A DNA stretch of 62,862 bases, counting the filler, from Asterionella formosa (lineage: Eukaryota): assembly GCA_002256025.1 (NCBI GenBank). It is 6 parts of 6 records of this genome, joined end to end, with 100 filler letters (N's around TTAATTAATTAA, not from the genome) between each part and the next. Parts side by side here need not be neighbours in the genome. Positions count along the whole stretch, not along the records: positions 1 to 19,575 come from NKIB01003613.1; 5 more parts are not named here. One strand, written 5' to 3'. A program made the position numbers and the translations under genes. Under the pieces are notes generated by a model that made no database searches, was not told the origin of the DNA, and worked only from the letters and a program-made list of their open reading frames with translations. How positions within the stretch are numbered: position 1 is the first letter of the stretch; the number at the start of each line of letters is the position of its first letter. Below, one piece after another: positions 1 to 19,675 of this stretch.

Positions 1-589
1 TTACGCTATAGTGTAATAGTATCTCCACTATACTTTGTCTATTAACCATAGAATGACTCCACCAGAGGTACCCGGTAAGTTGTAATAGTCCTCTGCTACT
101 CCCCTTATTATTGACAACGAAAATTGAAGTTGCCGCTGCCCCCTTTTAAAATCCAATTTAGAGATTACTTAAACGACAATGATATGAGCAGATAAAACAC
201 TTTTACAGTAGCTACACATCAAATGAGACTACGACTACAGTATTAATATGAATAATCGAAGCAAAAGATGTGAAATAATGCTATCATGAGAATAAAGACA
301 ATCAGACAATGCTACTATGATTGAGGATGAAGGAGAAGATACTTAAGCAACATGTCACAACAAAAATATTCAACTCTTCTAACATGAGGTTTCAGCAAAA
401 TGGAATGCCAAACACATCCTGCAAGTTTGGGAAGCTAAAGATCCTCAACTCCATTTGGAAAAAATGTCCAACTGTCCTGCATCTCATGAATTGAGCCATA
501 TTTTTTGCTTTTATCTACTTGCAAAGTAGATTCAGTTACTGTTCAGCTTGACTAAAAAATAGGTTTTAATTTTCTTGCCGTATTCTATG

Positions 590-3500
590 CTACCGCAGCT
601 CTACTTTCGTCAAGGCATCGCCTCCATCACTTTGATCAGCTGGTGAAAATCTCTTCACGATCGCTCGCTCACTCTGCAGCCAAGCTCGAACCTTCTGTTT
701 GAGAATACCCCTCTCGCCGTGACCATGAAGAATGTACACGACACTGCGACCCGCCATTATGGACATACTAAATTTGTCCTTTGCTTTGTCCTTTGCCTCT
801 TCGAAATTGCATCCGAGGACATTGACAGTGTTTGACTCAGTTCTTATTGTAATGTCATTAGTCGTCGACTTCGTTGATGGTTGGGCTGAAGCCGGACTGG
901 ATATCTTTTCGCAGGCTAATGCTTGTTCTACTGCTCTAGAATTTCGGTTTCCTTTTTTCGCATCAGAGGCCATTGGCATGACACGTTTGTTTGGCATGGC
1001 GAGTTCTGTCATCTTGAGACGAACAGAAATTCCATTTACCTTGACCTGGGGACGACTGCCCGCCTCGAGAACAATAGCTTCCTTGCCAAACAAACTACCT
1101 TGCTTACATACTTGAAGTTTGTCACCAACCTTCAATTCAGGCTTTTCTCGCATCTCTGCTAGGGGAACAAGTTCAGCCACGGCTTGCTCTAATGCAGCCG
1201 CGTTGGCTAGCTTTGCTTTGACCACGCTAGGCACATTTTCAGCATCGTTGATAGCATCTCTCTTGACAAATTTGATCTCCTCCCAGCTACGAGCAATAAC
1301 TTTCCGAGAAGGATCTGTTTTTAATTTTTCAAGGATATCTTCGAGCACTCGTTCCTTCTCTTCCAATTTGGATGCAAACTTCTTAGCTTCATCGCGACGA
1401 GCACTTAGCTGTTTTTGTTCTAGTTGAGCTTGCTGAGCTTTCAATTCAATTTGGAGAGCGACGATTTCCTTTTTCTTTTCTGCCATGTCTTCCACCTGTT
1501 GATCTACCAAGGCCTTCTGGTCTTCCAATTCACGAAGCAAGTCACCCATTTGTCGAGTTTCAGAGTCCAAAAGCTCTGTTGCTCGATCAATCACCTTCTG
1601 CGGAAGTCCCAATCGTTCGGCGACAGACAAGGCAAAAGACTCTCCCACTGTTCCTGGTAAAAGCTTGTAGGTCGGTCTACCATTCACAAATTGCATGCCT
1701 CCTACAGCAAAACGCTCATCAGATGCTGCCAATTGCTTCAATTCCATGTAATGTGTCGTTATAACCACCCGAGACCCGGCCTCGACCAATTCTTCTAGCA
1801 AGGCTTGTGCAATTGCTACGCCCTGTGCAGGATCAGTCCCACTTCCAAGTTCATCCATCAACACCAATGCATTAGTACCAGAATTCTCCAGAACTTGCTT
1901 GCAGACCAACATGTGACCAGAAAAAGTGGACAAATCTCCTCCGACCGACTGCAAGTCACCAATATCGGCCAAAACAGGAGAAAAGAAGTCCACGCGAGGT
2001 TGATGGTCGGCACTATCAGCTGCAATGGGAATACCGTTCCGAGCCATTAATGCCACTAGCCCCAACAATTTTAAAATGACTGTTTTGCCTCCGGCGTTGG
2101 GACCCGTCAGGACCAACCCCTGGTTTCCGTCTGCACCTAGGTTGATGTCACTTCCCACGACCTTGTCATGGTCACTGATGCGCAGCATTAGCAGTGGATG
2201 TTTTGCATTCTGTAGCGAAACAATTCCCTCATTCCCACAAAGCGGAATGACTCCCCGCCATTGATTTCCCAATAAACACTTGGCTAGAATTAAATCCAAT
2301 TGACCCACAGCCATGACAGCCGCTTCCAATTCAACTCTTGCAGACAAAATTTCTCTGGTCAACGTTCGCCACACACGAGCCTCTTCCATTCGTAATTCTG
2401 CTTCGGCTTGTCGCAAGGCATTGGTAGGTCCTACAAGTTCAGTAGGTTCCACATATACTGTCTTTCCACTTCGACTGGCATCATGCACAATGCCAACACT
2501 AGAGTAGGCTTTGTCCATAGGGATGACAATGCGGCCATTGACTTGCGAATACATGGGACCCCCCGACTCTGTTGCTATTTTGTTTTTCATTGACGGTGCT
2601 TCAAGGATCTTATCTAACGTCCCAAGAATATCCTTTTTGCTAGTTCTTATCGTGGCACGCAGTTGTCCAATATTGGGAAACGTAGTCCCTGACAAGCGTC
2701 CTTCGTTGTCCAAGGCACGGTCTAATAAATCCTGGAGTGTCGTATTGACATGGATGCAATCAACAAATTTTTCAAGCTCAACAAATTGTATTGTCTGAAC
2801 GTTGGCCAACCCTTGACCCCACCGTATGATATCATCCAACACATGCATGATAGTACAAACTTCCAAAATGTCTGGTCCCTCCAACACTTGCCCCCCGTCG
2901 GCAATGCTCAAAATAGAGGCAAGGTCAAAGGACATTCCCCCTAGAGGTGGTGCTCCAAGTGGTTCCTTGTATCCCTTTCGGTTTCGATAGTTAGCGTCGC
3001 CCATCAAGTGATTGTACTTGACGTCTGTCAGGTATTGCATTTCTTGTACTGCTGCGTATCGTTCCTGCAGGCCTTGATAGGAATCGGCTGTTAATGGTTG
3101 GTACGCCTTGGGTATAGGCATGGGCGGCTTGATACTTCCTTGAACAATGGCTCGAGCGGGAAAGGTGCTACACTGTCTTTGCAATGCTTGCAAAATGAGA
3201 GGGAAATCCAAGGTATCCAAGGTGCGTTGTAACAAGTCCAACGATGGTTCTTCTTGTTGCGGTTCCACACCGGCTGTGTTCAGAAGTGGCGACGGCTGAT
3301 TCAGTTGCAAGGGAGTCAAGGTGTTTCGTGCCTGGAACCAACTTTCGTCAAGCATTGTGGGAGATTCTTTCGTTTCGTCCAGAAACGCCGGTGAATCAAA
3401 GTCCGGAGTAGCGTCTGGGTCCCATTGAACCGGTTGTCGAATGAGGGAGTAGCCATCTGCTCCAGCTCGGGCATCGTCGTTGTCCAATCGTTGCTGCTGC

Positions 3501-3628
3501 GATGCTATTGCTGCCGTTCGTACAAAAGGAAAGGCAGCAACAGCACTGGTGCGAAGCAGAAATAAGAATAAGGACAGAAGCAGTCCTGTGCCGAGACGAT
3601 GGGAAGGTAAGCGTGGTACTGGAGTCAT
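590..3628 (-). CDS. mutS2: MutS2 family ATPase/endonuclease with C-terminal Smr domain, probably plastid-targeted
   Basis: Single 1012-aa ORF with Walker A LTGPNAGGKT, DIGDLQS..LSTFSGH, MDELGSGTDP..G, ITTHY, G.SFAL.VA.RLGLP, a coiled coil and Smr ILHGHG..GILK..VR..GGD. N-terminal hydrophobic stretch followed by AVAAFP resembles a bipartite presequence. Confidence 0.93.
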   Translation of the reverse strand: MTPVPRLPSHRLGTGLLLSLFLFLLRTSAVAAFPFVRTAAIASQQQRLDNDDARAGADGYSLIRQPVQWDPDATPDFDSPAFLDETKESPTMLDESWFQARNTLTPLQLNQPSPLLNTAGVEPQQEEPSLDLLQRTLDTLDFPLILQALQRQCSTFPARAIVQGSIKPPMPIPKAYQPLTADSYQGLQERYAAVQEMQYLTDVKYNHLMGDANYRNRKGYKEPLGAPPLGGMSFDLASILSIADGGQVLEGPDILEVCTIMHVLDDIIRWGQGLANVQTIQFVELEKFVDCIHVNTTLQDLLDRALDNEGRLSGTTFPNIGQLRATIRTSKKDILGTLDKILEAPSMKNKIATESGGPMYSQVNGRIVIPMDKAYSSVGIVHDASRSGKTVYVEPTELVGPTNALRQAEAELRMEEARVWRTLTREILSARVELEAAVMAVGQLDLILAKCLLGNQWRGVIPLCGNEGIVSLQNAKHPLLMLRISDHDKVVGSDINLGADGNQGLVLTGPNAGGKTVILKLLGLVALMARNGIPIAADSADHQPRVDFFSPVLADIGDLQSVGGDLSTFSGHMLVCKQVLENSGTNALVLMDELGSGTDPAQGVAIAQALLEELVEAGSRVVITTHYMELKQLAASDERFAVGGMQFVNGRPTYKLLPGTVGESFALSVAERLGLPQKVIDRATELLDSETRQMGDLLRELEDQKALVDQQVEDMAEKKKEIVALQIELKAQQAQLEQKQLSARRDEAKKFASKLEEKERVLEDILEKLKTDPSRKVIARSWEEIKFVKRDAINDAENVPSVVKAKLANAAALEQAVAELVPLAEMREKPELKVGDKLQVCKQGSLFGKEAIVLEAGSRPQVKVNGISVRLKMTELAMPNKRVMPMASDAKKGNRNSRAVEQALACEKISSPASAQPSTKSTTNDITIRTESNTVNVLGCNFEEAKDKAKDKFSMSIMAGRSVVYILHGHGERGILKQKVRAWLQSERAIVKRFSPADQSDGGDALTKVELR

Positions 3629-5043
3629 GTTGTGTAACTGTCAAGTTGGGATTTGTTGTGTGCGTTGCGTAGTCTGTTGCAGTAATCGTTTGTTTATTTC
3701 GTATCGGACTCGTTGATTAGTTGATTAAATGATGAGTTACTGTCATTTCCTAGAATGATTCATGACAAGCGCAGTTGTTGTTGCTGATTACTATGCATAT
3801 TTCGTAGATGTGTAAGTTTAATACAGAAGAACGAAAGTTGGATCAAATTCATCGACATGAGACGACAGGTAAAATAAGAGAAGCAAGACAAGAAGAATAC
3901 GAGCTAGACATGCCGGTATATCCATGTCTAAATGTATTTTCATATGTAAATATTTACCTACGATTATAAATGTATGTGTGTAGAGCGATCATGAGGTGAT
4001 GACGATTGAGCAGGAACAACCTCAGACCACATAGTAGGAAGTTTATAAGGATAGGGATACGAAGGACCTTTTCATTTGTACCAGGTACCGTGGTACTGGA
4101 ACAATGCATGACTTGTGGTCCCGGGTACGTACCAGGGTACCAGGTACCATGTAGCCTGCTGCTTGATTGTGCCTGCTGCCAGCCAGCCACGACATCGTAT
4201 AAATCTACAGGTAAAAGGTAATCAACAAAGACCAGATCATGGTGTCAGGAGGAGGAAGGTCCGTTCAATTTTTGGCTGGCCTTTTTATAATTAAGCAGTG
4301 CAGCATAATGCAAGATAAAAGCATGAAAATCATCATCCACCATGGAGATTTCTTGAACTGCCGCTCCGTTGAGATCCATCGTTTGCATTATTGTTACAAT
4401 CACAAACTGTAAAAAGTATTATCGATGCAGCATGCGACGATAATATTTACTATGTATAGCTACACCTGCTATCAATCATCATCATCAATGGAAANNNNNN
4501 NNNNNNNNNNNNNNNNNNNNNNNNNNNNNNNNNNNNNNNNNNNNNNNNNNNNNNNNNNNNNNNNNNNNNNNNNNNNNNNNNNNNNNNNNNNNNNNNNNNN
4601 NNNNNNNNNNNNNNNNNNNNNNNNNNNNNNNNNNNNNNNNNNNNNNNNNNNNNNNNNNNNNNNNNNNNNNNNNNNNNNNNNNNNNNNNNNNNNNNNNNNN
4701 NNNNNNNNNNNNNNNNNNNNNNNNNNNNNNNNNNNNNNNNNNNNNNNNNNNNNNNNNNNNNNNNNNNNNNNNNNNNNNNNNNNNNNNNNNNNNNNNNNNN
4801 NNNNNNNNNNNNNNNNNNNNNNNNNNNNNNNNNNNNNNNNNNNNNNNNNNNNNNNNNNNNNNNNNNNNNNNNNNNNNNNNNNNNNNNNNNNNNNNNNNNN
4901 NNNNNNNNNNNNNNNNNNNNNNNNNNNNNNNNNNNNNNNNNNNNNNNNNNNNNNNNNNNNNNNNNNNNNNNNNNNNNNNNNNNNNNNNNNNNNNNNNNNN
5001 NNNNNNNNNNNGATCTCAAGGGTGGCAACGATTTAGCCCAACT

Positions 5044-7027
5044 TTAAGCTTGAACTTCCGCGTCATCATGATCAATTGGCTCCTCAGTCAATTCCTTGGT
5101 TGGCAACGTAGGGTCTGGATCTTCGAGTGCCTTGGACTCGGTAGTGTGATGTGGAATATCGAAAACTCCGCGGACAGTGGCGGCTTCTTCAAACCAATTG
5201 GAAAAGGCCTCGGTGCTATCATCGTGAATCTCAGGGTCCAACTTAATTCCAGGAAGAAACATGCGGATACCTTGAAGGATGGCAAACGTTCCCGCCAGCA
5301 TACAGTAAGCAACAAAGAACTGCCACTGTTGGCCGAAATCCCAGCATTCTGTCGCAGAAACACATTGTTCCCAAGTCGGGCTACTGAAGTTATCAAAGCC
5401 AGCCACGGGGACGTGGATGATTCCAAAAAGAGCAAAAAAGGCTGCAACAAGAGCCCAAATGGTGGCCTTCTTCCATTGGCGATCAATCACCATGACAAGC
5501 ATGGCGACCCAAACAAACGACACCAGCAAAGAGCCGCGCTTCCAACCAAGGACTCCGTACCACCCGGGAAGGGATCCGAGATGGGCGTTTCCGCCGTCGT
5601 CGGTTTCGATTGGGCTCAAATTAGAAACATTGACTACCCAATCGTAAATGGAGGGGAAGAGGCCAATAATAAATGCTGCATAGTGGCGAGCGGGCATAAA
5701 TGTCAGCGCTTCTTCATTTATCATCAAGCCAACAAAGAGCACAATAGGACCAATTGTTGCCAAATTCACAATGGACTGCATCAGGGCAAGGACACCAAAC
5801 CAAGATAGGATGAGGTAGACGCACCCATTGACACACGAATAACCCGTCAAGGCACCAGAACGCTTGTGAGCAGGGTGGCCAATATAGATCACGGTTCCAA
5901 AAGGAGATCCGAAGAACGCCGCAAGCATGGTACCGATTCCATCAGCAATCATAGACTCGCGAACCGGAAAAGGGTCGCCAGCTTCCCTGGCACTCACAAG
6001 ACACATGAGAGTCGTGGCAGCTGCAGAAATACCAATGGGAATGACGATTCCCAAAAAGTCTTTAATAGTGCTGAAATCAGCAAACATTTCATCGGCGACC
6101 CACTTCGGTCCCCACCACTTGACTAGTTTCGCAGCGTCTTGGACGGCGCTTACTTCATTCACGCCAGTGGCCCAGCCAAGGATAACACCAACAATAATGA
6201 CTTGAAGGGCTTCAGGGCAACGTACCCCTCCAAAACCAACACGGACATTGGCGTACCAGCCGAGGAAAACCCACATGATCGTGTTGTAACCGACAATAGG
6301 AGCGGCGATGCAGGCGGTAATTTGCTCCATGCCGAGAAAGGCAAATCCAATGCCAGCAATGGGGACGAGGAGTGCGGCAGGAGGAATAATTTGTAGAAGG
6401 TAGGGTCCAAAGCATCCAAGAAATGTCAAGATCAGACCAGTGATGAAGTTTGCTGACAAAGCCACTTGATAGGCCAGAGCGAAGGCGTTTGAAGGGGACT
6501 CAGTAGTAGACGAGGCAAAGTAGACGGGATCTAGAAAAGGAAAAGAAATTGTGGAACACAAGGTTGGAATACTGAAGGTGGCAACCGCACGAGGAAGATG
6601 TCATGATCATGAACTTACACATAATGTTGTAGACAAAAGCAAAGGCTGCAGGGGTGTTCAAGCCATATGGTTGAGCAGTGTATGGACGGCCCCACTTTTT
6701 AGTGAGCCGGATCGCCTGCCAAGTGTAGAAGACGTTTCCAAAGCAAAGGGTAATGCCAACTCCAGGCACGAGCTTGCCCCAAATGATTTGATTAATGTCG
6801 TCAGTGGGAACTCCAAAATCCGCCATGGCCTGAATTGCATAGAGTGCTCCGAGGAGAGTGGAGAGATTATCAAAGAAGAGCTGTGTCAAACTGCCCCAAT
6901 CTCCACCCGTCATGCGAAAACCCTTCCCGAAATCGTTTAGCTCGCCTTTCACACGACCCAGGGTGAAGGATCCCATTTCATGCGTCTTGACTGGTTCAGT
7001 TCCAGGGTCTTCTTCTTCGGTAGACAT
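5044..7027 (-). CDS. AzgA/NCS2-like (xanthine/uracil/purine) permease, 2 exons: 7027-6619 and 6530-5044, ~631 aa
   Basis: GT-AG intron 6618-6531 joins two ORFs in frame (..FVYNIM-Y-PVYF..). Many hydrophobic helices. Motifs FFDNL, GNVFY, TAQPYGLNTPAAF and FGSPFGTVIYIGHPAHKRSGA..GYS match bacterial-type AzgA/NCS2 permeases. Confidence 0.85.
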
Positions 7028-8721
7028 GGCTGCAATGGTGGTTCACCGAGATTCTTCACGATTTCGATCACAGAATACGTGTGGAGCACGTAATACGGTA
7101 TGCGTATACCAATAGCAATTCCAGAATAATAAGATCTTTACTTTCCTATGTATCTTGTTATGCTTTTTTCAGGTTTTCTATCACAGCATTCGATACTGGA
7201 CAGTGCATTGACATTGCAATCAATGTACCGGCTTGAATACCAACAACTTCCGATAAAATAAAAGAAGATCTTTTCCTTCCGACTAGATACCGGTAGTGTC
7301 ATTACTCAGAATTATTGTAAATGCCAGTAAGTAGTCTCGGAATGCTCTAGATCGTTTTCTATGTGACAAGTTGAACATGAATTCTTCAACACCCCTGGTC
7401 ATCAATACTTCCGATATAAAAGGGAAGATCGCTTGATTCCTTCCGTTTAGAGTTGTGGAAGTTCTGTAATCAAAAAGGTGCAAATTGACACTTTGGTCGG
7501 GAAATCAAGCGAGTTGTTGCAACGTCATTTTAGTTGGAGTACGGAGTCCTCCATNNNNNNNNNNNNNNNNNNNNNNNNNNNNNNNNNNNNNNNNNNNNNN
7601 NNNNNNNNNNNNNNNNNNNNNNNNNNNNNNNNNNNNNNNNNNNNNNNNNNNNNNNNNNNNNNNNNNNNNNNNNNNNNNNNNNNNNNNNNNNNNNNNNNNN
7701 NNNNNNNNNNNNNNNNNNNNNNNNNNNNNNNNNNNNNNNNNNNNNNNNNNNNNNNNNNNNNNNNNNNNNNNNNNNNNNNNNNNNNNNNNNNNNNNNNNNN
7801 NNNNNNNNNNNNNNNNNNNNNNNNNNNNNNNNNNNNNNNNNNNNNNNNNNNNNNNNNNNNNNNNNNNNNNNNNNNNNNNNNNNNNNNNNNNNNNNNNNNN
7901 NNNNNNNNNNNNNNNNNNNNNNNNNNNNNNNNNNNNNNNNNNNNNNNNNNNNNNNNNNNNNNNNNNNNNNNNNNNNNNNNNNNNNNNNNNNNNNNNNNNN
8001 NNNNNNNNNNNNNNNNNNNNNNNNNNNNNNNNNNNNNNNNNNNNNNNNNNNNNNNNNNNNNNNNNNNNNNNNNNNNNNNNNNNNNNNNNNNNNNNNNNNN
8101 NNNNNNNNNNNNNNNNNNNNNNNNNNNNNNNNNNNNNNNNNNNNNNNNNNNNNNNNNNNNNNNNNNNNNNNNNNNNNNNNNNNNNNNNNNNNNNNNNNNN
8201 NNNNNNNNNNNNNNNNNNNNNNNNNNNNNNNNNNNNNNNNNNNNNNNNNNNNNNNNNNNNNNNNNNNNNNNNNNNNNNNNNNNNNNNNNNNNNNNNNNNN
8301 NNNNNNNNNNNNNNNNNNNNNNNNNNNNNNNNNNNNNNNNNNNNNNNNNNNNNNNNNNNNNNNNNNNNNNNNNNNNNNNNNNNNNNNNNNNNNNNNNNNN
8401 NNNNNNNNNNNNNNNNNNNNNNNNNNNNNNNNNNNNNNNNNNNNNNNNNNNNNNNNNNNNNNNNNNNNNNNNNNNNNNNNNNNNNNNNNNNNNNNNNNNN
8501 NNNNNNNNNNNNNNNNNNNNNNNNNNNTCGTCAAGTTTCATCGATTACATACAGTATCTGTCGGTTTACAGATTTACCGGTGAATGTGTATCTATTATCC
8601 TCACGTGCGATTGTTTATTTGCAAGCAATAAACAAACCCAAAACATAACGTAGTGTTCATTCTTGTTGGTTGGTCAAGAACTTGACAACTAATTAACTAC
8701 GGCTACATTTTCTTTTGCAAC

Positions 8722-9616
8722 ATGGTACACGAATCGAAATACATTGACGCCGATCCTTACAAGTGGCCTTTTAATGGAAACTTAAACCCCAAGAATACGT
8801 GCATTATCGTGATTGGTGAGTGTTGCAAAATCCGCGCTCTTGTCATCATGATGCACATCCATCACGGTTCAACAACTACTCCTCCGATCGTCTCATTCTT
8901 TGCTGGTTGCTATGATGGTATACACAGACATGCAAGTTGATTTTTGCTCACCTGGCGGGTACGTTGATAAAATGGGCTACGATATCAATTTGACTCGTGC
9001 TCCAATCGAGCCAATTTCGAAAGTGCTTGACTGCATGAGGAAGGAAGGATACCACATAATGCACACTCGGGAAGGGCATCGCCCCGACTTGGCAGATTGT
9101 CCACCAAACAAGTTGTGGCGCAGCGCACAAATTGGTGCCGCCATTGGGTCACTGGGCCCATGTGGCCGCATCTTGGTAAAGGGCGAACCGGGGTGGGAAA
9201 TTATTCCAGAACTATCTCCTCTTCCTGACGAGGTAGTTGTCGATAAACCTGGAAAAGGGTCCTTCGTTGGGACGAACCTTGACCTCATTCTCCGCTCCAG
9301 AGGAATCTGCAACATCATACTTGCTGGGGTGACTACAGATGTTTGTGTACATACCACCATGAGAAACGCGAATGACATGGGTTACGAATGCTTGCTTCTC
9401 GAGGTAAGCGATTATGGACTATTCATGAGCTCAAGAAAGGCCTTTTAAATCTAATCTCATCCAATGTTTCGAATTGATTATACTCTACAGGACTGTTGCG
9501 CCGCAACTGACCCAGACAATCACGCGGCAGCAATCAATATGATTAAGAAGCAAGGCGGGGTCTTTGGATCTGTTTCCAACTCAACTGCACTCATCATGGC
9601 TCTATCGACAGCTTGA
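8722..9616 (+). CDS. biuH: Biuret hydrolase (isochorismatase-like cysteine hydrolase), 3 exons: 8722-8815, 8928-9403, 9491-9616
   Basis: Spliced product [91 protein letters not shown]. Asp-Lys-Cys triad intact. BiuH-type residues present (GGY, MGYD, TTDVC, ATD, QGGV). Both introns are GT-AG and keep frame. Confidence 0.92.
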
Positions 9617-9678
9617 GGTGATACTAGTCTAATGTTAAGAGATTAAAACAGATTATACTTCATACGGACATCGCTCCT

Positions 9679-10745
9679 CTACTCTTCTAACACAATCGGG
9701 TGCATTTCGCCTTCAATAAAGTCAACATTGAAACCAATATCACGAAGAGCAGTTTCTACTTCAGAAGCTGACATGGGGTAGTTGACACGAGCTGTATCCA
9801 ATCCGACTCCAAATCGTACCTTCTTCTTGCATTTGAAAGGGGGCCCATGATCGGGGGACTGTACCTTTGCCTCAGCAGCTCTAATAGCTTTCCGAATTCC
9901 ATCCCAATAACGCATGTATGCCGCTTCGGCCTCTGCCAGGATTTCAGCCGTACAGACCTGTTCATCTGGTGTACCCGAGCTGCACATGGCTTCTGCCTTG
10001 GCAGTACGGTCAGAATCGGATACGTTGGCCCATAGCGCGAGGCTATCGGGAAAATTGGTAACTTGCGTGCCATCGTCAAGGGTACGAATAATAGGACTAG
10101 GAACATGACTTTCGTGAAACCAAACAGCGGTCACAAGTGGCACGGCAACATGCAGCATATCAGTCTTGCCCTGTTTCTCGATTTCACGCCGCAAAAAGGC
10201 TTTGACAGCTGGAAAGGTTGCATCGGCATCTAGGTCAATCTGACCAGTGTCGGGTGTTATGCTTAGGAATCTTGGTTCATGGTTTAAGGCTGAGAGAAGC
10301 TGTCGAGAGTCAACAAGATAGATCCAATATTCATTTGCATGCTCGTAACAACCACTTGCGAATACATTACAGTTGATGAGAGGTTGCATAGGCTCGGGCT
10401 GTCATATGATAGCGAGAACATGTCAGTTGATCAATGACAAAATTCTTTGAACTCTACAATTCAACGAGAAACATCATTCTACAAACATACCGAATATTGT
10501 CTCCATCCTTCCTGCATAACATCTAAAAAGGCCTTATAACCCCTCACAAGCGCCCTTCCAAGGAAGATCGCCCTTGATTCATCGCTTTCACCAGAATGGT
10601 AGTCAAGCTTGTGATGTTCTGGAAAGCCATCTTGTAAACCCCCAGAGACTCCTACGATAAGGTATTCTCGATTCTCACTTGGGGCCGCTGCCACAAAACT
10701 GGCAACAAGTACGTTAAAGCACACGAGGATATGCAGGCTAATCAT
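9679..10745 (-). CDS. Hypothetical secreted protein, 2 exons: 10745-10491 and 10398-9679, ~324 aa
   Basis: ATG at 10745 opens a signal-peptide-like MISLHILVCFNVLVASFVAAAP. Phase-0 intron GTATGT(10490)..CAG(10399) joins it in frame to the 236-aa ORF. No family recognised. Confidence 0.7.
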
Positions 10746-11679
10746 GATGCATAAAAAGGAGAAACTGGGAGGTAGCTGGCGGAAATCTCTCCTGTAGGGC
10801 GGAAACTCGAAGCAGCTATCACCAGTGAGCTGCAAACAATCCTTGCGTCAATTCTGAGTTCTATTAATTAATCAATAAAATATAGCTCAGCCAGCATCAG
10901 AGGAGAAGAATGGTATTTCATGTGTTACGTTGTTTCAATACTTTCACTTTACTCAAGAATGAACAGGTATTCCGCTATCTCGGTACAGGTACTTCCCAGA
11001 ATAGCAAGGCATATATTTCTGTAGAGTACCTGACACTCCGGAATCCGGGTGCCGTAAGGACATTCCAGATTTCACTTGACCCGTTCACGTGATCGAACGA
11101 AGAAGGTCAAATTGCGTTACGTGGCGAACGATGGAGCAATGCATGATTGTTGATTTGACACACGCGACTGATTTCAGTAACGGGCATCTATTCCTAATTT
11201 TGAATGCAACTTCCTCCTCATTTCTGGGAAGCATGACGAGCAAACTTTANNNNNNNNNNNNNNNNNNNNNNNNNNNNNNNNNNNNNNNNNNNNNNNNNNN
11301 NNNNNNNNNNNNNNNNNNNNNNNNNNNNNNNNNNNNNNNNNNNNNNNNNNNNNNNNNNNNNNNNNNNNNNNNNNNNNNNNNNNNNNNNNNNNNNNNNNNN
11401 NNNNNNNNNNNNNNNNNNNNNNNNNNNNNNNNNNNNNNNNNNNNNNNNNNNNNNNNNNNNNNNNNNNNNNNNNNNNNNNNNNNNNNNNNNNNNNNNNNNN
11501 NNNNNNNNNNNNNNNNNNNNNNNNNNNNNNNNNNNNNNNNNNNNNNNNNNNNNNNNNNNNNNNNNNNNNNNNNNNNNNNNNNNNNNNNNNNNNNNNNNNN
11601 NNNNNNNNNNNNNNNNNNNNNNNNNNNNNNNNNNNNNNNNNNNNNNNNNNNNNNNNNNNNNNNNNNNNNNNNNNNNNNN

Positions 11680-12551
11680 ACTGTGGAGCTATCGATGAAA
11701 CCGCACGACGGTATAATTGATCTCTCGCGTACTGCTCTCTTGATCATCGATATGCAAGTAAGAAAATACTCTCGAACCACATTGCTGAGGGTGGAACCAA
11801 CTCTTCTATTACATAACTTACATCAAATCCATTCCATATTGAATTACATTTAGCGAGACTTTCTTGAGGAGGGAGGATTTGGTGAAATTCTTGGCAACGA
11901 CGTCACCAAACTCCAAATAGTTATTGAACCAATCAAGAAATTGCTACTTGCTGCTAGATCATATGGACTAATGGTGATCCATACTCGCGAAGGACACCGA
12001 GCTGATATGACAGATGTACATCCATTCAAGAATGAAAAGAAGGACAAACATGGAAACATTGTCAAGTCAATCGGTGAGACTGGCCCGATGGGTCGGATTC
12101 TCATTCGTGGAGAGCCTGGTCATGATATTATTTCTGACCTCTATCCTGAGAAGGGTGAACCTGTTATTGACAAACCAGGTGAGAAATGAATATTTCCGCC
12201 GCGATTGTACTTCATTCTATCCAGATTTCACTAAAAATTACATTTACTTCACGTGCGTATGTTGTGAACAATGAAGGAAAAGGCTCGTTTTATGCAACTG
12301 ACCTTGATGCAATCTTAGCTGTGAACAACATCACGACTCTACTAGTGTGTGGTGTTACCACTGAGGTTTGTGTACACACGACAGTTCGAGAAGCCAACGA
12401 CCGTGGCAAGCACTGCATTGTAGTATCAGACTGTTGTGCATCATTTTTTGAGGAATTTCACAGAGTTGCGCTTGAGATGATTGTGGCGCAGGGTGGGATC
12501 TTTGGTTCAGTGACTGACAGCGCAAGCATAATCACGGCACTAGCTGGATAA
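11680..12551 (+). CDS. trtA: Triuret hydrolase-like cysteine hydrolase, 5' end in gap; exons <11680-11757, 11854-12178, 12277-12551
   Basis: Spliced product ..[105 protein letters not shown] triad intact. TrtA-type rather than BiuH-type residues (GGF, LGND, TTEVC, AS[Y/F]F, QGGI). Introns 11758-11853 and 12179-12276. Confidence 0.82.
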
Positions 12552-12741
12552 ATTTGACAATGAAGAGCGGAACTCACAGAAAACCCAAATTCACACATGT
12601 ACTTTATGAAAAACAACAAACTCCTTGCTTACATATATTCATTTCTTTCTTTGATAAATACAATAGTCGTTGTTTCTCTGTTAAAATGCAGAATCCAACT
12701 TGCCTAACTTTCACCACAATATATTATTTATAAATAGAAAC

Positions 12742-14385
12742 CTACTTCGCAAAGTTGCTCTTGATCCTGGACAAAATATAATCACCAGCAGTAATTGGAT
12801 CTCCCTTACCATCGTCGATTAGCGCGGACTTATCTGCTTGAGAAAAGAAGGCAATAGAATACCTAGACGAAGGAGGGGTACATTCTTCCTCGGTTGGCAT
12901 TCGTACTCGGTGAAGGTTGGAATACAGTCTACCACCGCTCCATCTGGCGAGCATGTCGCCAATGTTGACGGCGATTCCCCCTTCCACAGGGTCGATGGGC
13001 GTCCAGCGAGAGCCTTCTTTTGATGCGTCACGAGGATTTGAACAGCACTCCAGACCAGCCTGACCGACCCTTTGAAACAAAAGCGTCAGGTCGTCCCAAT
13101 CCGTGTGAGCTCCTGCACGCCAAAAGATGCGACCATTTTCATCTGGAGTTGTAAGTTTCCGAGATAATTCAGCATCCATTGGTGTGTAATGAAGCATACG
13201 GAGTGTGCATTGGCCTTCTGATGCCCACAGTCTTTAATAAAATCATTTGAATTTTGTTTACATAACGAGAACGACACAGAGATATTGTGAGGAAAAAGAC
13301 TCGTTAAATATTGTTGCTAGCGTGCAAGTAACTTACTTGTGTGACTTGGCAAGAGTGCCAGGCTCCAAATTAGGGCAAGCTTTCGGTTCCATTAAGTTGA
13401 GAAGTCGGTTTGTTAACTTGTGTCCCTCAGCAATAAGAGACTCAGCCACTGGACGAAAATTTGACGGCACTGAAGGCCATCTGCCGTCCATTACTCCTTC
13501 TCTTGCTGTAATTTGAAGGCTCTCCTTCTGATCTGCCGTTCCTGTTGATGGACGGACTTGAGTCATGTATTCATAGCCTGAGTTCATTTCACGAGAGAAT
13601 GGTGACATTTCCGTCTTTTCTTCCTCTGGGAGAGAAAAGAAGGCAGCAGAAGCTTCAAATGCACTGTCAATCATTTCTTGAGGAATGCCATGGCCAATCA
13701 AAGTAAAAAATCCGACAGTTGTTGCTGCATTCCAGAGCTGCTCGGCTATCACTTCATCATTTTCTTGGGAAAGGTCAATTACTGGAACGGAGAAATCTCT
13801 CGTCGCCGCAGCTGCTCCAATACCACTGGAAAAAAGAGATCGTTCTGTCTCAATGTCAGCGTTGGCCTGAGCGATTTTCAGTTCATCGCTTCCTTTCCAG
13901 ATTCCACTTTCCCTGTGAACTTTCATGGCTTCTTCGCTCAGGAGAGGACCTTCAATTTCAAGCTGTCTGGTGCCAGGCCGTCCAAGCGAATAGATTTCTT
14001 TCACTGGAATGTCAAAACCACCTGGACCTGACCATTCGCAAAGCTCTTCAGAAGAAGCGCCAAATACTATTCTCCCGATTCCTGACCAATAAATTGCGCC
14101 GGCACACATGACGCACGGCTCGGTGGAAGCGTACATCGTGCACCCCTTTCTGGTATCCATGTCAATATCTGCAACCATGCGAACAAGCTCTAATTCTGCG
14201 TGGCGAGTGACATCACCTGCTCCGCCTCTTTCTTTCCTTGCTGCAGATAAGTTATGACCCTCCTTGAGAATGTTTCCTCCTGCGTCAGCAACAACTGCAC
14301 CGAACGGCATGTTTCCGTTGGCGACAGCTATGGCACTCATCTTGATGGAGCGCCGAAGGCAAGCCTTGTCGTAAGGTCGTGACAT
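12742..14385 (-). CDS. Fusion: CDA-superfamily Zn nucleobase (guanine-deaminase-like) deaminase + 2OG-Fe(II) dioxygenase (DIOX_N/IPNS-like); exons 14385-13337 and 13231-12742, ~512 aa
   Basis: N-domain has PFGAVV, RHAE and YASTEPCVMCAGAIYW. The C-domain starts in the same exon (VPVIDLS, GFFTLIGHGI, FF.LP.EEK, DQKES) and continues after a GT-AG intron (13336-13232) with LRMLHY, GAHTD, LTLLFQ, VNIGDML.RWS, SNLHRV, RYSIAFF, giving a complete HxD..H..RxS set. Confidence 0.9.
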
Positions 14386-15018
14386 AGTTTCTGCAAGTAA
14401 TGGAATTACTAAAGTTGTATAGCAAGTGACAGGATGGTTTTGTGCTTACTATTAACCAGATTTTCTGCTTCTTAGTTTCTGGCAGAAGCAAAAATTGCAT
14501 CTGATTTTAACAGTTTACATTTTATATTTGCCGATCTTCGTTCCCACATGATACGAATACGATACCTACAGTAATGAGACCTACAGCAATTTGTACAGGT
14601 AATTTGATCAATTTCCTTTGTATGATAGTGCTGTCGGCGGGAACTTTTTCCAACGATACCGTATTTATTACCGGTAATTATGTAGTACTCGGCGTTTTGT
14701 TTTATTTCAATCTCGTTTCTACCTGTCTACTAAAGCGGTGGTGAGGTAATCCTGGAATTGTTCCTAGAATCGGACCAATCAAAGGATGAGAAAGCTAGCC
14801 AGCGGTTACACAACAGTTTATATACCACCCGGTTGTATATCAACAGGACTCGATATGCAGGTCACTGCTGCTGTGGTGGTGACAAACAGTTCGTCATTTT
14901 CACGGCCAATCATCAGATGTTTTCACATACCGGTAACAAAATACACATCATTTTAATTTAGATTTCACATTACATCCATCGCTCTAGATGCCGGTGTAGA
15001 TGTAAACTCCCAAACAAA

Positions 15019-16142
15019 ATGCCATTCTCGTACATGCTAACAGGTTCGTTCTGACATGAGTGTCATTGGATATCAGCGCAACTTGATATTGCTATTGTTC
15101 ACCTCCAAAGGAGTCAACGCGAAAGTAAGTGAATCCGCCACCAAACCTTTTTGTTCTCACAACATCATGTTCCGTATTCATCACCGTAGTGGCATACGAT
15201 GGATCCCGGTACAATGGCTTTCAGCGCCAAACGGCATCCCTCGCCGCAGCAAGGGTTCCGAAACGACCACGGTACAATGAGAATGGTCAGAAACAAAGTG
15301 TAGCACACACCATTCAAGATTGTTTAGAAGATGCGATATTAAGTCTGTATCCTCAGCTGTCCCTTGAATCGCTTCGCATGAGATGCGCAGGAAGGACGGA
15401 TGCGGGAGTTCATGCCAAAGGACAAGTTGTAGCCATTGACGTACCTGAGAAGCTACTAGCAAATGAGGATGGAACCCTGTGGCAAACAATTAAGGCCATC
15501 AACAGTCGGTTACCTAATGATATCTCCATTGAAAGAATTGATCCGTGCTGCTTTGGATGGGAGCCACGAAAAGAAGCGATCCGAAAACGATATTCTTACA
15601 CACTTAGATATCGAAGGAATGTTGTAACTAAAGACGGTGCTACTTCGAATGCCATATGCTCCTCTGGAATTCATACCATTCGAAGAGCTCATGATGGGGC
15701 TTGTCTATGGCATTGTCCCTGGGCATTGGACGATCGTCATATGCGCACGTATTGTCGGACGTTATCAGGACAACATGATTATTATGCATTTGTCCATAAA
15801 GAAGAGAGAAAAACACAACGATGTCACAAGATGACATTGACAGCCTTTGACTATCACGTTTTAGATGAAACATCGAATGAGGTGGCACCTGTTCTGACCG
15901 TGCAATTCGTTTTGGAAGCAGCAGGTTTTCGAAGGACCATGGTGCGAAATCTTATTGGATTTGTTGTGGACCTATGCCGTGGTGCTATCCATGCACCATT
16001 AACATCGCTAGAAAAAGTATGGGATGCAAATGAAAATGCAGCTGCATTGATACATGCAGCTCCTGCAAGTGGGTTGTGTCTAGAACGAGTGTACTTTCAA
16101 ACGCATGACGAACCAAGTTTCATTGTATTGGACGAAAAGTGA
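15019..16142 (+). CDS. truA: tRNA pseudouridine synthase, TruA/Pus family; predicted exons 15019-15043 and 15190-16142
   Basis: Motifs AYDGSRYNGFQRQ, AGRTDAGVHAKGQ, LSGQHDY.AF, FRRTMVR.LIG, AAPASGLCL. A proposed intron 15044-15189 gives the N-terminus MPFSYMLT-V-AYDG, matching the TruA YxLTVAYDG consensus. Confidence 0.9.
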
Positions 16143-16665
16143 CCGTCAGTTCAAAAATAATAAAATTTTGGGTGAATGTCTACGCCACATAAAAAGGAAA
16201 CTTGATACTTCGCCTTTTATTCCAAAATATTCAATTTTCGATTGAATGTGTATCCTGGTGACCTTCACGATTTTTATCGGCAAATCAGTATCGTCGTTCA
16301 TCCTTGCATTCAGTCGCATTGCTCTTACTTACTAACAACTCATCAAACTGGAACTCAAAGACTCGGACAAGGTCAGGAAAGGAATTTGCAAAATGCTTCT
16401 CGTAAAGTCCTTCTGTTTAACTTTCTCTATGCCACGCACTAGGAACGATACCAACAATTCCTTCCGTTCAAATCTTGAATCTCATGGCCACACCAGAACC
16501 AGGGCGAGAATTACATCCCCTAGATTTTGATCATTCCACATGAAAAAACTAGGATAAAGCAATTTCATGGCATGATAAGCTCATTTTTCACTTCGGATGC
16601 CCTGTTATCAATGCATATAGTAACTTTATAGTTTAACCACTATCCAATTCACAGCAACTGAAGTT

Positions 16666-16754
16666 TTGCAGGGAATTCTTGACGGTAGATTTTCAGGCTC
16701 ACTAATCACAATAGGGAACCTTCATTCACTTCTCCTCAAGCGTCCATCTGCAAA
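16666..16754 (-). promoter_or_regulatory. Putative SECIS element in the 3' UTR of the DsbA-like gene
   Basis: Minus-strand long hairpin tttgcag..cttgagg.aga..AUGA-aggttcccta-loop-tagtgagcc-UGAA..tct.cc.tcaag..ctgcaaa, with an AUGA/GA quartet core at 16725-16722 and 16695-16693. The apical AA is not canonical. Confidence 0.55.
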
Positions 16755-16782
16755 TGCAATTATTAAGTAAAAAATGTATCAT

Positions 16783-17535
16783 TTAAACCAGTTCCTCAAA
16801 TATGGCAAGAAACTCGTCGGGTGGCTGCGCACCACTCAAGGTATGTTTACCGTCAATGATAAAGAAAGGGACACCATTGCATCGATACTTGGTCTTAAAG
16901 TCCTTCATTTCATGCGAAACTTCCATATTTCCAATCGACTTATCTTCCAACAAATCAGTCACATCCATACCTGCATTCTTCGCACATTCCTCCAAAACAG
17001 AGTTCTCGCCCAAACTCTTTTCTTCTTCAAAGTATGCCTTGAACACGGCATCAACAACTTTATTCTGTAGTTCTGCACCTCCTTCGTCGCGCGCTTTCCA
17101 GATCAATCGATGACTATCAAAGGTGTTGCCAATGGATCCCCCATAGCTAAATTTGATCCCTTCGGATGCTCCGGTTTGGATCATGTGGGGGAGCATCGAG
17201 CGGACTCTTTCTGGGCCGAACCGAGAGTTATAGTAGCCCATTTTATCCACTCCCTTGCCCGATGGCAAATCCGGATTAAGCTCGAATGGTCTCCAGCGTA
17301 CATCGAAATCTACGTTGTCAAAGAGAGATGAGGACTTTGCCGTTTGAATGGCTTTTTCAAGGCGCTTCTTCCCCACATAGCACCAAGGTCAGATCGTGTC
17401 AGAGATAATGTCAATAGGAATAATGCGCTTCGACGACATGCTGGAAGTACTGCTTTGGGCTCGGATGGCAAATGCTACTGCTGATGGAGTATGAATGAGA
17501 GTAAGCAAAGAAGTAAAAGCTACTTTAAAAGACAT
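16783..17535 (-). CDS. DsbA/FrnE-like thioredoxin-fold oxidoreductase, predicted selenoprotein (UGA at 17391-17389, UPWC motif), ~250 aa
   Basis: One frame reads MSFKVAF..SAVAFA..IDIISDTI-TGA-PWCYVGKKRLEKA..VRWRPFELNP..NTFDSHRL..GVPFFII..LSGAQP. The TGA sits exactly at the first Cys of the FrnE CPWC motif. Confidence 0.85.
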
Positions 17536-18298
17536 TTGATATGAGAAGGAATGTATGTGCTCGTAGAGAGGCACAACGTATGACGTTCCAAGGAGCATCT
17601 TCGATTTCGGCGTAGTTTGAAACTGCCTCACAGCATAATATTGTAGGAACTGTCGGTATCCATAAATATGTACAGTAGACAACATACCGCTAGCCTAGTA
17701 CTCCAAATGATAGCAGAGGGTGTCGGACATTTGTATTTATACCGGTGTGAATGTATTCTTGCTTACCGACACTCAGGAGTATACTAGTACCTGGTACCTG
17801 GTACCAGGTACCGTATCCTCGTGACGCCGCAGGTAAAACTAGGATTCCGGTAAGTATGTACCGGTATGTATGATATTTACAACACACCGTTATGTGTGTA
17901 CCAGACAGAAGACTTTCAGCAGTATCTAGAGTGGATACATGAGGATGAGAATCATACTGTTTCCTGTGCGTGGGAATTGTATCACAAAATCTAGTCAATG
18001 GAAAACAATTTCATTACCGGTACATCTTGTAATTTAATTTGTAGCACTCTCTCCCACTAAGTACTATAACAAAGTAGGGCCTAGACTAAAAGTGAAAGCG
18101 CTTACCTGCAAATCCAAATAATCTTCATTCTTGTTGCAAGCTTGATCTCCTCTTGTTTATGTTTTGAGAACATTCGTATCATGAACAACATGTGATGTTA
18201 AGACTATGATGTTTACTACATGACCAATTCTTGAACCATTACAAATTCTAAACACAGGAGCTGCGTAACAGACTCATAGCCGCATACCGGTAGTTTCC

Positions 18299-19279
18299 TT
18301 ACAATGTGTCCTTGATGAACGTAATGGCTGCTGCTGCCCGTTCAGTGACTGATTTTGGACGGTACCCATCCATGGCCATAATCATTGTTTCGCATTCTCT
18401 GTATGATGGTTGCCCGTAATCAAATAGCTTGCCCCCGTCTCGCTTGTTTGCAGGGTCCTGATCAAAGTCGAGAGGTTTATCCTCCTGCACCTCCTTTTGT
18501 CCAATTTCAGTCCATACGACATTTGATCCTTCTTTATTAGCATCAGCATTTTGACGCAGAAATACTCGCCATGGGCCTGGGTAGGAACGTAGGACTCGAA
18601 CCTGATCACCTTCTACCATGAGATTTGTACATGAAAAGGTAGGTACAAATGTTTCCACTTGTGCCACTTGGTCACCTCCACCAAAAAAGCCAAAGTCAGT
18701 CCGTCTCTTCCACTGAGCATTGACAAGAATCAAATTTCGCTTTGGTCCCACTTGCGCCTCTAACCCCTGCAACACAGTTACTGAGTCCGAAGATGGCAAC
18801 AAGACAGTGCAAGCATCGTCCTTGGCTGCCTTTGCTTGAGAAAACAAGGCATAAACCCCATCGGACGAGTCTAGCATGGAAGTCGATATAGTCAGCGCTC
18901 CCAAGTTCTCCAGGACACGCTGCATCAAGGGACGAGCCGCTTCCATCATTTGACGAGCACCACCGGGCCAGTCGTCAAGTTCCGTCGCTCCAATGACAGG
19001 TAATAATAGGCGGACGGAGTGGCGATGAATCCCATCCGAAGAGGCTCGTTGGAGGGCTGCTGACGCTTGTCGAATTTGGTCGTCGACAGAGGTTGGGAAT
19101 CGTGTCATTAGAAGATCGTTCAATGCATCGTCTGATTCGGAAGCAAAGAGAGGACTGCAAGTTGAGTAGCCGGTGGTTGTGGTTTTAAGGAAAGATCTGT
19201 GGGAAGAATGTATTGCCGGAAAGCTGAGCCCTGCGACAAGTAGCACGGCAAAGGTGGCGAGCGATTTCGCAAACAACAT
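18299..19279 (-). CDS. DUF1995-family plastid protein
   Basis: 326-aa ORF with signal + transit-like N-terminus. Motifs LLLP..GATELDDWPGGARQM, LILVNAQW and VRVLRSYPGPWRVF recall DUF1995 proteins. Confidence 0.7.
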   Translation of the reverse strand: MLFAKSLATFAVLLVAGLSFPAIHSSHRSFLKTTTTGYSTCSPLFASESDDALNDLLMTRFPTSVDDQIRQASAALQRASSDGIHRHSVRLLLPVIGATELDDWPGGARQMMEAARPLMQRVLENLGALTISTSMLDSSDGVYALFSQAKAAKDDACTVLLPSSDSVTVLQGLEAQVGPKRNLILVNAQWKRRTDFGFFGGGDQVAQVETFVPTFSCTNLMVEGDQVRVLRSYPGPWRVFLRQNADANKEGSNVVWTEIGQKEVQEDKPLDFDQDPANKRDGGKLFDYGQPSYRECETMIMAMDGYRPKSVTERAAAAITFIKDTL

Positions 19280-19575
19280 GTTGAGTTATCGGATGGTATG
19301 GATCTAGAGCGTCACATCTATGAGACTCGTCTGTTATGATGGTCGATGGTTTGAAAGGCGAAAGTTGTATGAATGGACAAAACGCATAACATCGTCGTCA
19401 CAATTAATTCCTGCGTGATTTCGCTCAGAATGCAGTGCCGTCAGCGACCAAAAGATGCTGCCGACGTGACTTTTGTGCATCTGCTTTCTTCGTCAAATCA
19501 GCATGGCTGTGGTCGTATCATTCCGGTGGTGTGAAAAGGGACTACCGGTATTTCCCGGCAGGTAAGAATATTATG

Positions 19576-19675
19576 NNNNNNNNNNNNNNNNNNNNNNNNN
19601 NNNNNNNNNNNNNNNNNNNTTAATTAATTAANNNNNNNNNNNNNNNNNNNNNNNNNNNNNNNNNNNNNNNNNNNN
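19576..19675. other. Artificial scaffold linker (N44-TTAATTAATTAA-N44); also at 39248-39347, 40563-40662, 41878-41977 and 43193-43292
   Basis: An identical 100-nt spacer carrying stops in all six frames is repeated five times. Confidence 0.97.

Follow-up and report, generated by a model that had tools for sequence, protein, structure and literature searches.

Biuret hydrolase (BiuH) and triuret hydrolase (TrtA) are known as bacterial enzymes that degrade fertiliser impurities and s-triazines. BiuH is also said to occur in green algae, a report that a 2026 preprint credits to Robinson et al. 2018. Here we describe two genes related to these enzymes, gene 1 (BiuH-like) and gene 2 (TrtA-like), which lie between positions 8722 and 12551 of a 62,862 nt stretch of DNA from Asterionella formosa. 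The whole of this stretch is referred to below as the window; the genes fall in the part of it taken from NKIB01003613.1 (positions 1-19,575), and the window comes from the nuclear genome of a pennate diatom, with Fragilaria crotonensis as its nearest named relative. The reading that we favour, with a probability of about 0.7, is that the two genes belong to a cluster for a biuret/triuret pathway, that the hydrolases diverged from one another in bacteria and entered the eukaryotic lineage in old and separate events, and that the introns and the clustering came later.

The closest described enzymes are BiuH of Rhizobium leguminosarum bv. viciae 3841 (PDB 5BK6, 6AZN-6AZS) and TrtA of Herbaspirillum sp. 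BH-1 (PDB 6XIX, 6XJ4, 6XJE; PMC7948467). The Rhizobium enzyme is of the same fold family as gene 1 and has the same Asp-Lys-Cys triad, but gene 1 is carried in a eukaryotic nuclear genome and interrupted by two spliceosomal introns, is without the bacterial N-terminal extension and stands head to head with an AzgA-like permease gene, whereas the Rhizobium gene lies in a cluster with atzD and an ABC transporter. Herbaspirillum TrtA is the best match to gene 2 among solved structures; the triad and Q202 are the same, F35, N41, E160 and I205 are shared, and a biuH gene is found nearby, as in bacteria. Gene 2 nevertheless falls in another subclade than canonical TrtA, and the bacterial members of its subclade are followed by a permease gene whereas canonical TrtA is found with atzD and a BMP-type ABC transporter. 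In the bacterial trtA-biuH clusters (PMC7948467, PMC12625717), as in the diatom, genes for both kinds of enzyme lie near one another and near those of an uptake system. However, the transporters named for those clusters are bmpA-nupABC and codB, whereas the diatom and 62 of the 80 bacterial loci described below have an AzgA-like permease, and the diatom genes are separate, intron-bearing transcription units on both strands. A further comparison is provided by the fused BiuH-TrtA-like proteins of green algae (Chlamydomonas reinhardtii CHLRE_10g448500v5, Micractinium), which like the diatom bring both signature domains together in a photosynthetic eukaryote, but in one polypeptide rather than two genes and with C-terminal domains that group with canonical TrtA (99/93).

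PMC7948467 mentions the presence of these enzymes in phytoplankton, TrtA among them, in one passing sentence. In the literature that we searched, no publication combining triuret and diatoms was found, and that dealing with triuret and permeases names codB and other permeases, not the AzgA-like family, for which no description was found either. The enzymes are of known kinds; we found no published account of the diatom cluster, of the link to the permease or of the separate subclade of gene 2.

Two spliced hydrolase genes in a diatom nuclear locus

Gene 1 (231 aa) occupies 8722-9616 on the + strand, in three exons (8722-8815, 8928-9403 and 9491-9616), and gene 2 (220 aa) occupies 11695-12551 on the same strand (exons 11695-11757, 11854-12178 and 12277-12551). 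A first-pass annotation of this DNA had proposed two such genes, with a set of sequence motifs and four introns, and we found the genes, every motif and every intron where it had placed them. All four introns are of the GT..AG type and 87-112 nt long. In gene 1, intron 1 (8816-8927, 112 nt, phase 1) splits the codon of the catalytic Asp32, which falls in the alignment column of TrtA D24, between its first and second bases, and intron 2 (9404-9490, 87 nt, phase 0) directly follows LLLE190. Intron 1 of gene 2 (11758-11853, 96 nt, phase 0) follows DMQ21, and intron 2 (12179-12276, 98 nt, phase 1) lies within the Gly130 codon of DKPG. The gene 2 ATG is at 11695, and the N-masked run that precedes it stops at 11679.

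Contigs from four public sequencing runs were aligned to the window and inspected for splice joints; X1 is polyA RNA-seq, X3 a metatranscriptome and X2 a run whose RNA label is guessed, these three coming from different studies, and X7 is the fourth. The joints of gene 1 (8814/8927 and 9401/9489) were present in contigs of three of the four runs (X1, X2 and X3), with exactly 112 and 87 nt skipped. Those of gene 2 (11757/11854 and 12176/12275) were present in one of the four, in a single X3 contig from which 96 and 98 nt were skipped at the predicted sites; the X1 and X2 contigs give no cover over gene 2, and no inference was drawn from this. The X7 contigs (95-99% alike) are unspliced across intron 2 of gene 1 and into intron 2 of gene 2. 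These may represent DNA, pre-mRNA or a related strain, and since RNA libraries can hold DNA or pre-mRNA they do not contradict the joints. A protein found in two sources, on 12 contigs (P0124), is letter for letter the predicted spliced product of gene 2, and the spliced form of gene 1 is matched colinearly by a separate contig, L082, whose product differs at 3 residues. All four introns are joined in RNA contigs as predicted, and both genes are expressed, spliced, intron-bearing nuclear genes. Gene 1 is at least partly present in 17 of the 19 public runs listed (16 of these are recorded as RNA), and the RNA sources that match the window are fresh water and estuaries.

The introns had also been taken by the first-pass annotation as an argument against bacterial contamination. 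Together with the splicing seen in RNA and the eukaryotic neighbour genes in the window (MutS/Smr, an RPA-interacting protein and an M14 carboxypeptidase), they exclude it.

No intron position of gene 1 coincides with one of gene 2 in the alignment, the first introns of the two being only 8 nt apart in homologous sequence. The relatives of each gene indicate how these positions behave. Among the 120 gene 1 relatives listed, 33 are open reading frames (ORFs) beginning MQxDF, that is, immediately behind the split Asp codon; 24 of the 33 reach the C-terminus and so are without intron 2, and six of the remaining nine read through from LLLE (LLLS in one case) into an intron at the second site of gene 1. 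More relatives among the matches listed read into an intron at the first site, from exon 1, or out of it. The BiuH gene of L083, a contig from a related diatom, has no intron at the Asp codon and has one near residue 168 instead. For gene 2, read-through in relatives P0134, P0138 and P0139 stops just before RDFLE and in P0357 (87% identical) just before PGKG, and the introns of other relatives lie elsewhere. From these sequences, the introns predate this species, vary between diatom lineages and are not common to the two genes. The spliceosomal introns would have been gained after transfer, with positions that keep changing from one diatom lineage to another, and the locus offers a clean case for studying how genes of bacterial ancestry gain introns and turn them over, in that positions differ both between the paralogues and between related diatoms.

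Assignment of the two hydrolases

Exon 2 of gene 1 matches the isochorismatase-like family PF00857 with 101.1 bits (gathering cut-off 27), and scores 2.4e-75 against R. leguminosarum BiuH (6azo) as compared with 7e-46 against TrtA. The motifs GGY, MGYD, TTDVC, ATD and QGGV are present, and the triad is Asp32, Lys138 and Cys171, in the columns of TrtA D24, K129 and C162. The consensus residues that separate the two enzymes (PMC7948467) are F35, N41, A134, E160, Y187 and I205 in TrtA and Y, Y, S, D, T and V in BiuH; these are the positions to which the first-pass annotation had pointed. Gene 1 has the BiuH residue at all six. Its signature over twelve catalytic and discriminating positions, DFYYKKSDCTQV, is that of Rhizobium BiuH at 12 of 12, and overall it is 69% identical to a Rhizobium BiuH. 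Across 65 full-length BiuH-like matches the Y, Y, D and V are invariant, S is found in 63 and T in 64. A metagenome scan with exon 2 gave 80 kept loci, two of them diatom-like (L082 and L083); the other 78 were 70-76% identical and bacterial-looking and were not used. The spliced product on L082 (L082:206-898) passes the cut-off of the NCBIfam BiuH equivalog NF050097 (380.4 bits; cut-off 370). By these measures of sequence, gene 1 is an orthologue of BiuH.

The two exons of gene 2 that match PF00857 score 33.8 and 85.6 bits, both above the cut-off of 27. The motifs here are GGF, LGND, TTEVC, ASFF and QGGI, and the triad is Asp19, Lys128 and Cys161, in the same three TrtA columns. Against the NCBIfam BiuH cut-off of 370 bits gene 2 fails with 270.7, as does the Rhizobium TrtA orthologue with 247.8. 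The twelve-position signature of gene 2 is DFFNKKSECFQI and that of the Rhizobium TrtA orthologue DFFNKKAECYQI. Gene 2 has the TrtA residue at four of the six discriminating positions (F30, N36, E159 and I204, for TrtA F35, N41, E160 and I205), and its Q201 corresponds to Q202. The first-pass annotation had described the two genes as carrying reciprocal specificity residues; this holds in full for gene 1 and for these four positions of gene 2, and not at A134 and Y187, where gene 2 has S and F. In 80 bacterial relatives of gene 2, F35, N41, E160 and Y187 are found without exception, I205 in 79 and A134 in 74, and within the diatom gene 2 clade the Y187 column holds F or Y and the A134 column A or S. 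Tree position (see below) and these residues place gene 2 in the TrtA clade, in an uncharacterised, permease-linked subclade of its own, and it probably has triuret hydrolase activity.

A permease gene accompanies both hydrolases

The third member of the locus is the gene for a polytopic permease of ~630 aa (5047-7027, - strand; two exons, intron ~6544-6617), which lies 1.7 kb upstream of gene 1 and is divergently transcribed. With genes 1 and 2 it spans 7.5 kb. The protein has at least 8 hydrophobic segments, and its exon limits are supported by diatom orthologues. Searches for Pfam PF00860 gave no match, the window ORF returning no family at E values up to 0.001 and its bacterial partners none up to 0.0001; nine of 117 permease homologues carry a precomputed PF00860 assignment, with source names of AGZA family or adenine/guanine/hypoxanthine permease. 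The protein appears to be a divergent AzgA/AGZA-like (NCS2-type) permease, a distant relative of NCS2/AzgA rather than a clear member. Eukaryotic relatives were found in diatoms, brown algae, Ostreobium and bdelloid rotifers. The homologues from the rotifers (Rotaria, Didymodactylos) and from the green alga Ostreobium (P0487, P0488, P0491 and P0493) are 33-52% identical to the diatom permease.

The bacterial context of gene 2 was taken from a scan in which each prokaryote species was represented by a single genome; it gave 80 loci (L001-L080) encoding proteins 61-68% identical to gene 2. At 62 of these there is a polytopic membrane protein of ~520-540 aa, without Pfam or NCBIfam match, and in 52 of the 80 the permease gene is on the same strand and starts less than 800 nt downstream of the gene-2-like gene. 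The window permease is 28-32% identical to the bacterial gene-2-linked permease over 360-430 aa (E down to 2e-43), and when the diatom permease was compared with five bacterial genomes, it matched best, in all five, the permease linked to a gene-2-like gene. BiuH is encoded at 12 of the 80 loci, with the gene-2-like gene, the permease gene and the BiuH gene consecutive on one strand at five. An AtzE-family amidohydrolase is found at 21 loci, so that AtzE or BiuH adjoins at 33; the substrate of AtzE is carboxybiuret, the product of TrtA (PMC7948467). Genes of the AllFGH type are present at about six loci. The pairing of a TrtA-like hydrolase with this permease is thus widespread in bacteria, and BiuH, AtzE-family and AllFGH genes are alternative neighbours of it. 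Outside this set, on an E. coli plasmid (L081; NZ_CP029742.1, 91110-99288), a hydrolase 61% identical to gene 2 heads a row of genes for DUF2877/AllH, FdrA, DUF1116/AllG, a carbamate kinase and a cytosine permease, and plasmids with the same row are numerous in E. coli and Klebsiella, poultry being a frequent source.

In the related diatom, contig L083 carries the permease and BiuH genes head to head, as in the window, with a neighbour gene also kept. In Seminavis and two other sources, BiuH and the permease are listed with longest contigs of equal size (22352, 23961 and 23949), which is indirect evidence for linkage. The permease-BiuH pair is the conserved core of the locus.

A possible route for triuret and biuret nitrogen

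In the pathway that we propose, the permease would take up triuret, biuret or a close ureide, as its gene neighbourhood suggests. Gene 2, from its clade, its signature residues and its bacterial neighbours, would remove the terminal amide of triuret to give carboxybiuret, which would lose CO2 to give biuret. Gene 1, by its orthology, would convert biuret to allophanate and ammonia, and the allophanate would be finished elsewhere, through an allophanate hydrolase or by decay to urea followed by urease. The gene content thus suggests that these algae could harvest nitrogen from biuret- or triuret-like compounds; it provides a concrete and testable pathway for the use of such nitrogen in algae, with a candidate transporter family. 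More speculatively, and we would put no great weight on it, there may be a dedicated route for triuret and biuret nitrogen in diatoms and perhaps brown algae, with the AzgA-like family as its ureide transporter in bacteria and eukaryotes alike, the eukaryotic cluster reassembling the content of a bacterial operon from genes that had been acquired independently. Triuret and biuret, which arise from purine oxidation or urea fertiliser run-off, would in that case be an uncounted nitrogen source for freshwater phytoplankton.

Several observations weigh against this pathway. No allophanate-consuming enzyme was seen within the window. L083, beyond the genes that it keeps, carries GDPD, Rieske and Myb genes, and gene 2 is absent from it. 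The eukaryotic permeases group separately from those of bacteria, the diatom protein being ~30% identical to the latter. For gene 2, TrtA is the best match among solved structures only narrowly (242.5 bits for 6xix, 228.6 for BiuH 6azo), and against the Rhizobium pair it is 50.9% identical to BiuH and 49.1% to the TrtA orthologue. It departs from TrtA with F186 at Y187 and S133 at A134; of the corresponding TrtA mutants, A134S is harmless and Y187T retains <10% of activity (PMC7948467). Members of the isochorismatase-like family that are 60-65% identical need not have the same substrate (PMC9800807), and no assayed member of the permease-linked subclade was found in the published literature searched.

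These properties of gene 2 would also fit an enzyme that acts on some other small ureide or amide, such as a carboxylated or substituted biuret, formylurea or guanylurea, and not on triuret. Its possession of a permease of its own, and the AllFGH and carbamate kinase genes, of the kind used in oxalurate-type catabolism, that adjoin it in some bacteria and on the E. coli plasmids, point the same way. We regard this as possible but unlikely, since gene 2 agrees with TrtA in four of the six discriminating residues and in Q202, the bacterial subclade mostly has all six, and the AtzE or BiuH neighbours at 33 of the 80 loci fit a product that is carboxybiuret or biuret. As to guanylurea, the assayed hydrolase of pMET-2 (PMC9800807) differs in signature (DFYMKYADCGEI) and is placed with BiuH rather than TrtA in the tree, so gene 2 is not of that kind; the enzyme of the original strain, GuuH of strain GU, was not part of this comparison.

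Probable separate bacterial origins of the two genes

Three trees were built, and all agree: a FastTree tree of 126 rows, a quick IQ-TREE tree of 81 rows and a careful IQ-TREE tree of 55 rows (LG+C20 PMSF). The first was obtained from 309 rows, reduced to 129 at 80% identity and then by three intron read-through rows. For the second, 8 long-branch representatives and 40 rows removed in thinning were taken out and 3 reference rows put in, and for the third a further 26 rows were taken out, among them the last of the long representatives and the two domains from Paenibacillus. The trees are without Herbaspirillum TrtA and GuuH of P. mendocina GU, for which the Rhizobium TrtA orthologue (L162:12201-12866; 281.6 bits against the solved TrtA 6xix) and the pMET-2 guanylurea hydrolase are the stand-ins. 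From tree position, and for some from intron read-through, the gene 2 clade members P0129, P0134-P0138, P0144 and P0250, and also P0074 and P0037, are probably eukaryotic.

Gene 1 falls in a clade of diatom (100/95) and brown-algal (98/89) sequences, together 100/99, which lies inside bacterial BiuH; its bacterial sister is not resolved. Gene 2 falls in a diatom clade (100/100; the named members are Seminavis and Attheya) that lies within a largely proteobacterial group (99/94), with genes from Ketobacter and Pseudomonas as its sister (96/79). Besides gene 2, the larger TrtA-side clade (100/98, 31 rows) takes in the TrtA orthologue from Rhizobium as well as the C-terminal domains of the green-algal fusions. 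Proteins that combine a BiuH-signature domain at the N-terminus with a TrtA-signature domain at the C-terminus were found in green algae (P0128, P0131 and P0126) and in Paenibacillus (P0125), and the BiuH domains of the green algae form a group apart from the ochrophyte clade. A single origin for the diatom genes and the green-algal TrtA-like domains was tried as a constraint and rejected (p-AU 0.004), the group having been named after the tree had been seen. A clade made up only of the diatom and ochrophyte copies of both genes was also rejected (delta lnL 134, p-AU 2e-76).

The rejection of local duplication, together with the nesting of each gene among bacterial sequences, indicates that the two diverged and became specialised in bacteria, before they entered eukaryotes. 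The proposal of the first-pass annotation that the genes were acquired already specialised is borne out, and so is that of independent intron gain, since no position is shared and the divergence predates eukaryotic entry. The acquisition itself was not recent: orthologues of gene 1 occur across diatoms and brown algae and, among the matches listed, those of gene 2 in Seminavis and Attheya. It is most likely that both hydrolases entered ochrophyte or diatom ancestors long ago and in separate events.

The first-pass annotation had also proposed that both genes came from a single bacterial operon. On this view one trtA-(permease)-biuH operon was transferred and the present cluster is its remnant. 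Such a row of genes does exist at five of the 80 bacterial loci, among them L002 and L036, the bacterial loci whose genes are closest to the gene 2 clade (96/79), and in the diatom all three genes still lie within 7.5 kb. Joining the ochrophyte BiuHs to the BiuHs of the gene 2-sister operons is a borderline case, 15.9 lnL worse and yet not formally rejected by the AU test (p-AU 0.058). Against a shared transfer, the eukaryotic permeases are not nested within the proteobacterial ones, and identities to the operon proteins are uneven (~65% for genes 1 and 2, ~30% for the permease). L083 keeps the permease and BiuH without gene 2, and among the matches listed no longest contig of equal size joins gene 2 orthologues with BiuH or the permease. 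Brown algae share BiuH, and no brown-algal gene 2 was present among the 120 matches listed, which is a weak point. On balance an operon origin seems improbable to us. Under the favoured reading of old and separate entries, the position of gene 2 next to the conserved permease-BiuH pair is probably a secondary clustering and not a relic of an operon.

Entry of gene 1 with the plastid lineage, by cyanobacterial or endosymbiotic gene transfer, is less probable still. The cyanobacterial protein P0099 of Leptolyngbya, with others like it, ranks high in similarity among the prokaryotic matches listed (76% over exon 2, 69.6% over the full length), but in the trees Leptolyngbya groups with other bacterial BiuHs instead of being the sister of the ochrophyte clade, the BiuH domains of green algae form their own group, and no red-algal homologue was found among the matches listed. 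Duplication within diatoms with later divergence of the active-site residues, which the first-pass annotation had named as the competing outcome, can be set aside as vanishingly improbable, for although the genes are same-strand neighbours and 46.5% identical, the eukaryote-only clade is rejected under the model used, each gene is 62-70% identical to bacterial proteins and no intron position is shared.

Other features of the locus

Between genes 1 and 2, on the - strand, lies an intervening gene to which no family could be assigned (9679-10745; exons 9679-10398 and 10491-10745). Its splice joint, 10398/10491, was present in RNA contigs of three of the four runs. Three sequences of the family were available, the other two being on L083, one beside BiuH (L083:5160-6186, -) and one beside the permease (L083:239-1174, +). 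No match was found in Pfam, NCBIfam, PDB-profile or Atlas searches, and the Atlas model is poor (pLDDT 0.35). The proteins have strongly conserved motifs and an N-terminus that is hydrophobic by eye, and a role for the gene in the pathway is possible.

Directly downstream of gene 2, also on the - strand, is a fusion gene (12745-14445) with a cytidine/nucleoside-deaminase-like domain and a 2OG-Fe(II) oxygenase part (DIOX_N and 2OG-FeII_Oxy). On pMET-2 a nucleoside deaminase gene adjoins that of the guanylurea hydrolase, and its product is 29% identical (E 1e-17) to the deaminase domain of the fusion protein; this likeness may reflect shared family membership only.

Two masked N stretches interrupt the locus, one between the permease gene and gene 1 (7555-8527) and one just upstream of the gene 2 ATG (11250-11679), so that the promoters and the 5′ untranslated region of gene 2 are unreadable. 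An X3 RNA contig crosses the second of these, with 275 letters for 436 window positions. Elsewhere in the window, pairs of 44-base N-runs recur four times between 39248 and 43292 with a spacing of 1315 bases, which suggests a ~1.3 kb tandem repeat with a masked core; the pair seen once more, at 19576-19675, is the filler between joined parts of the window.

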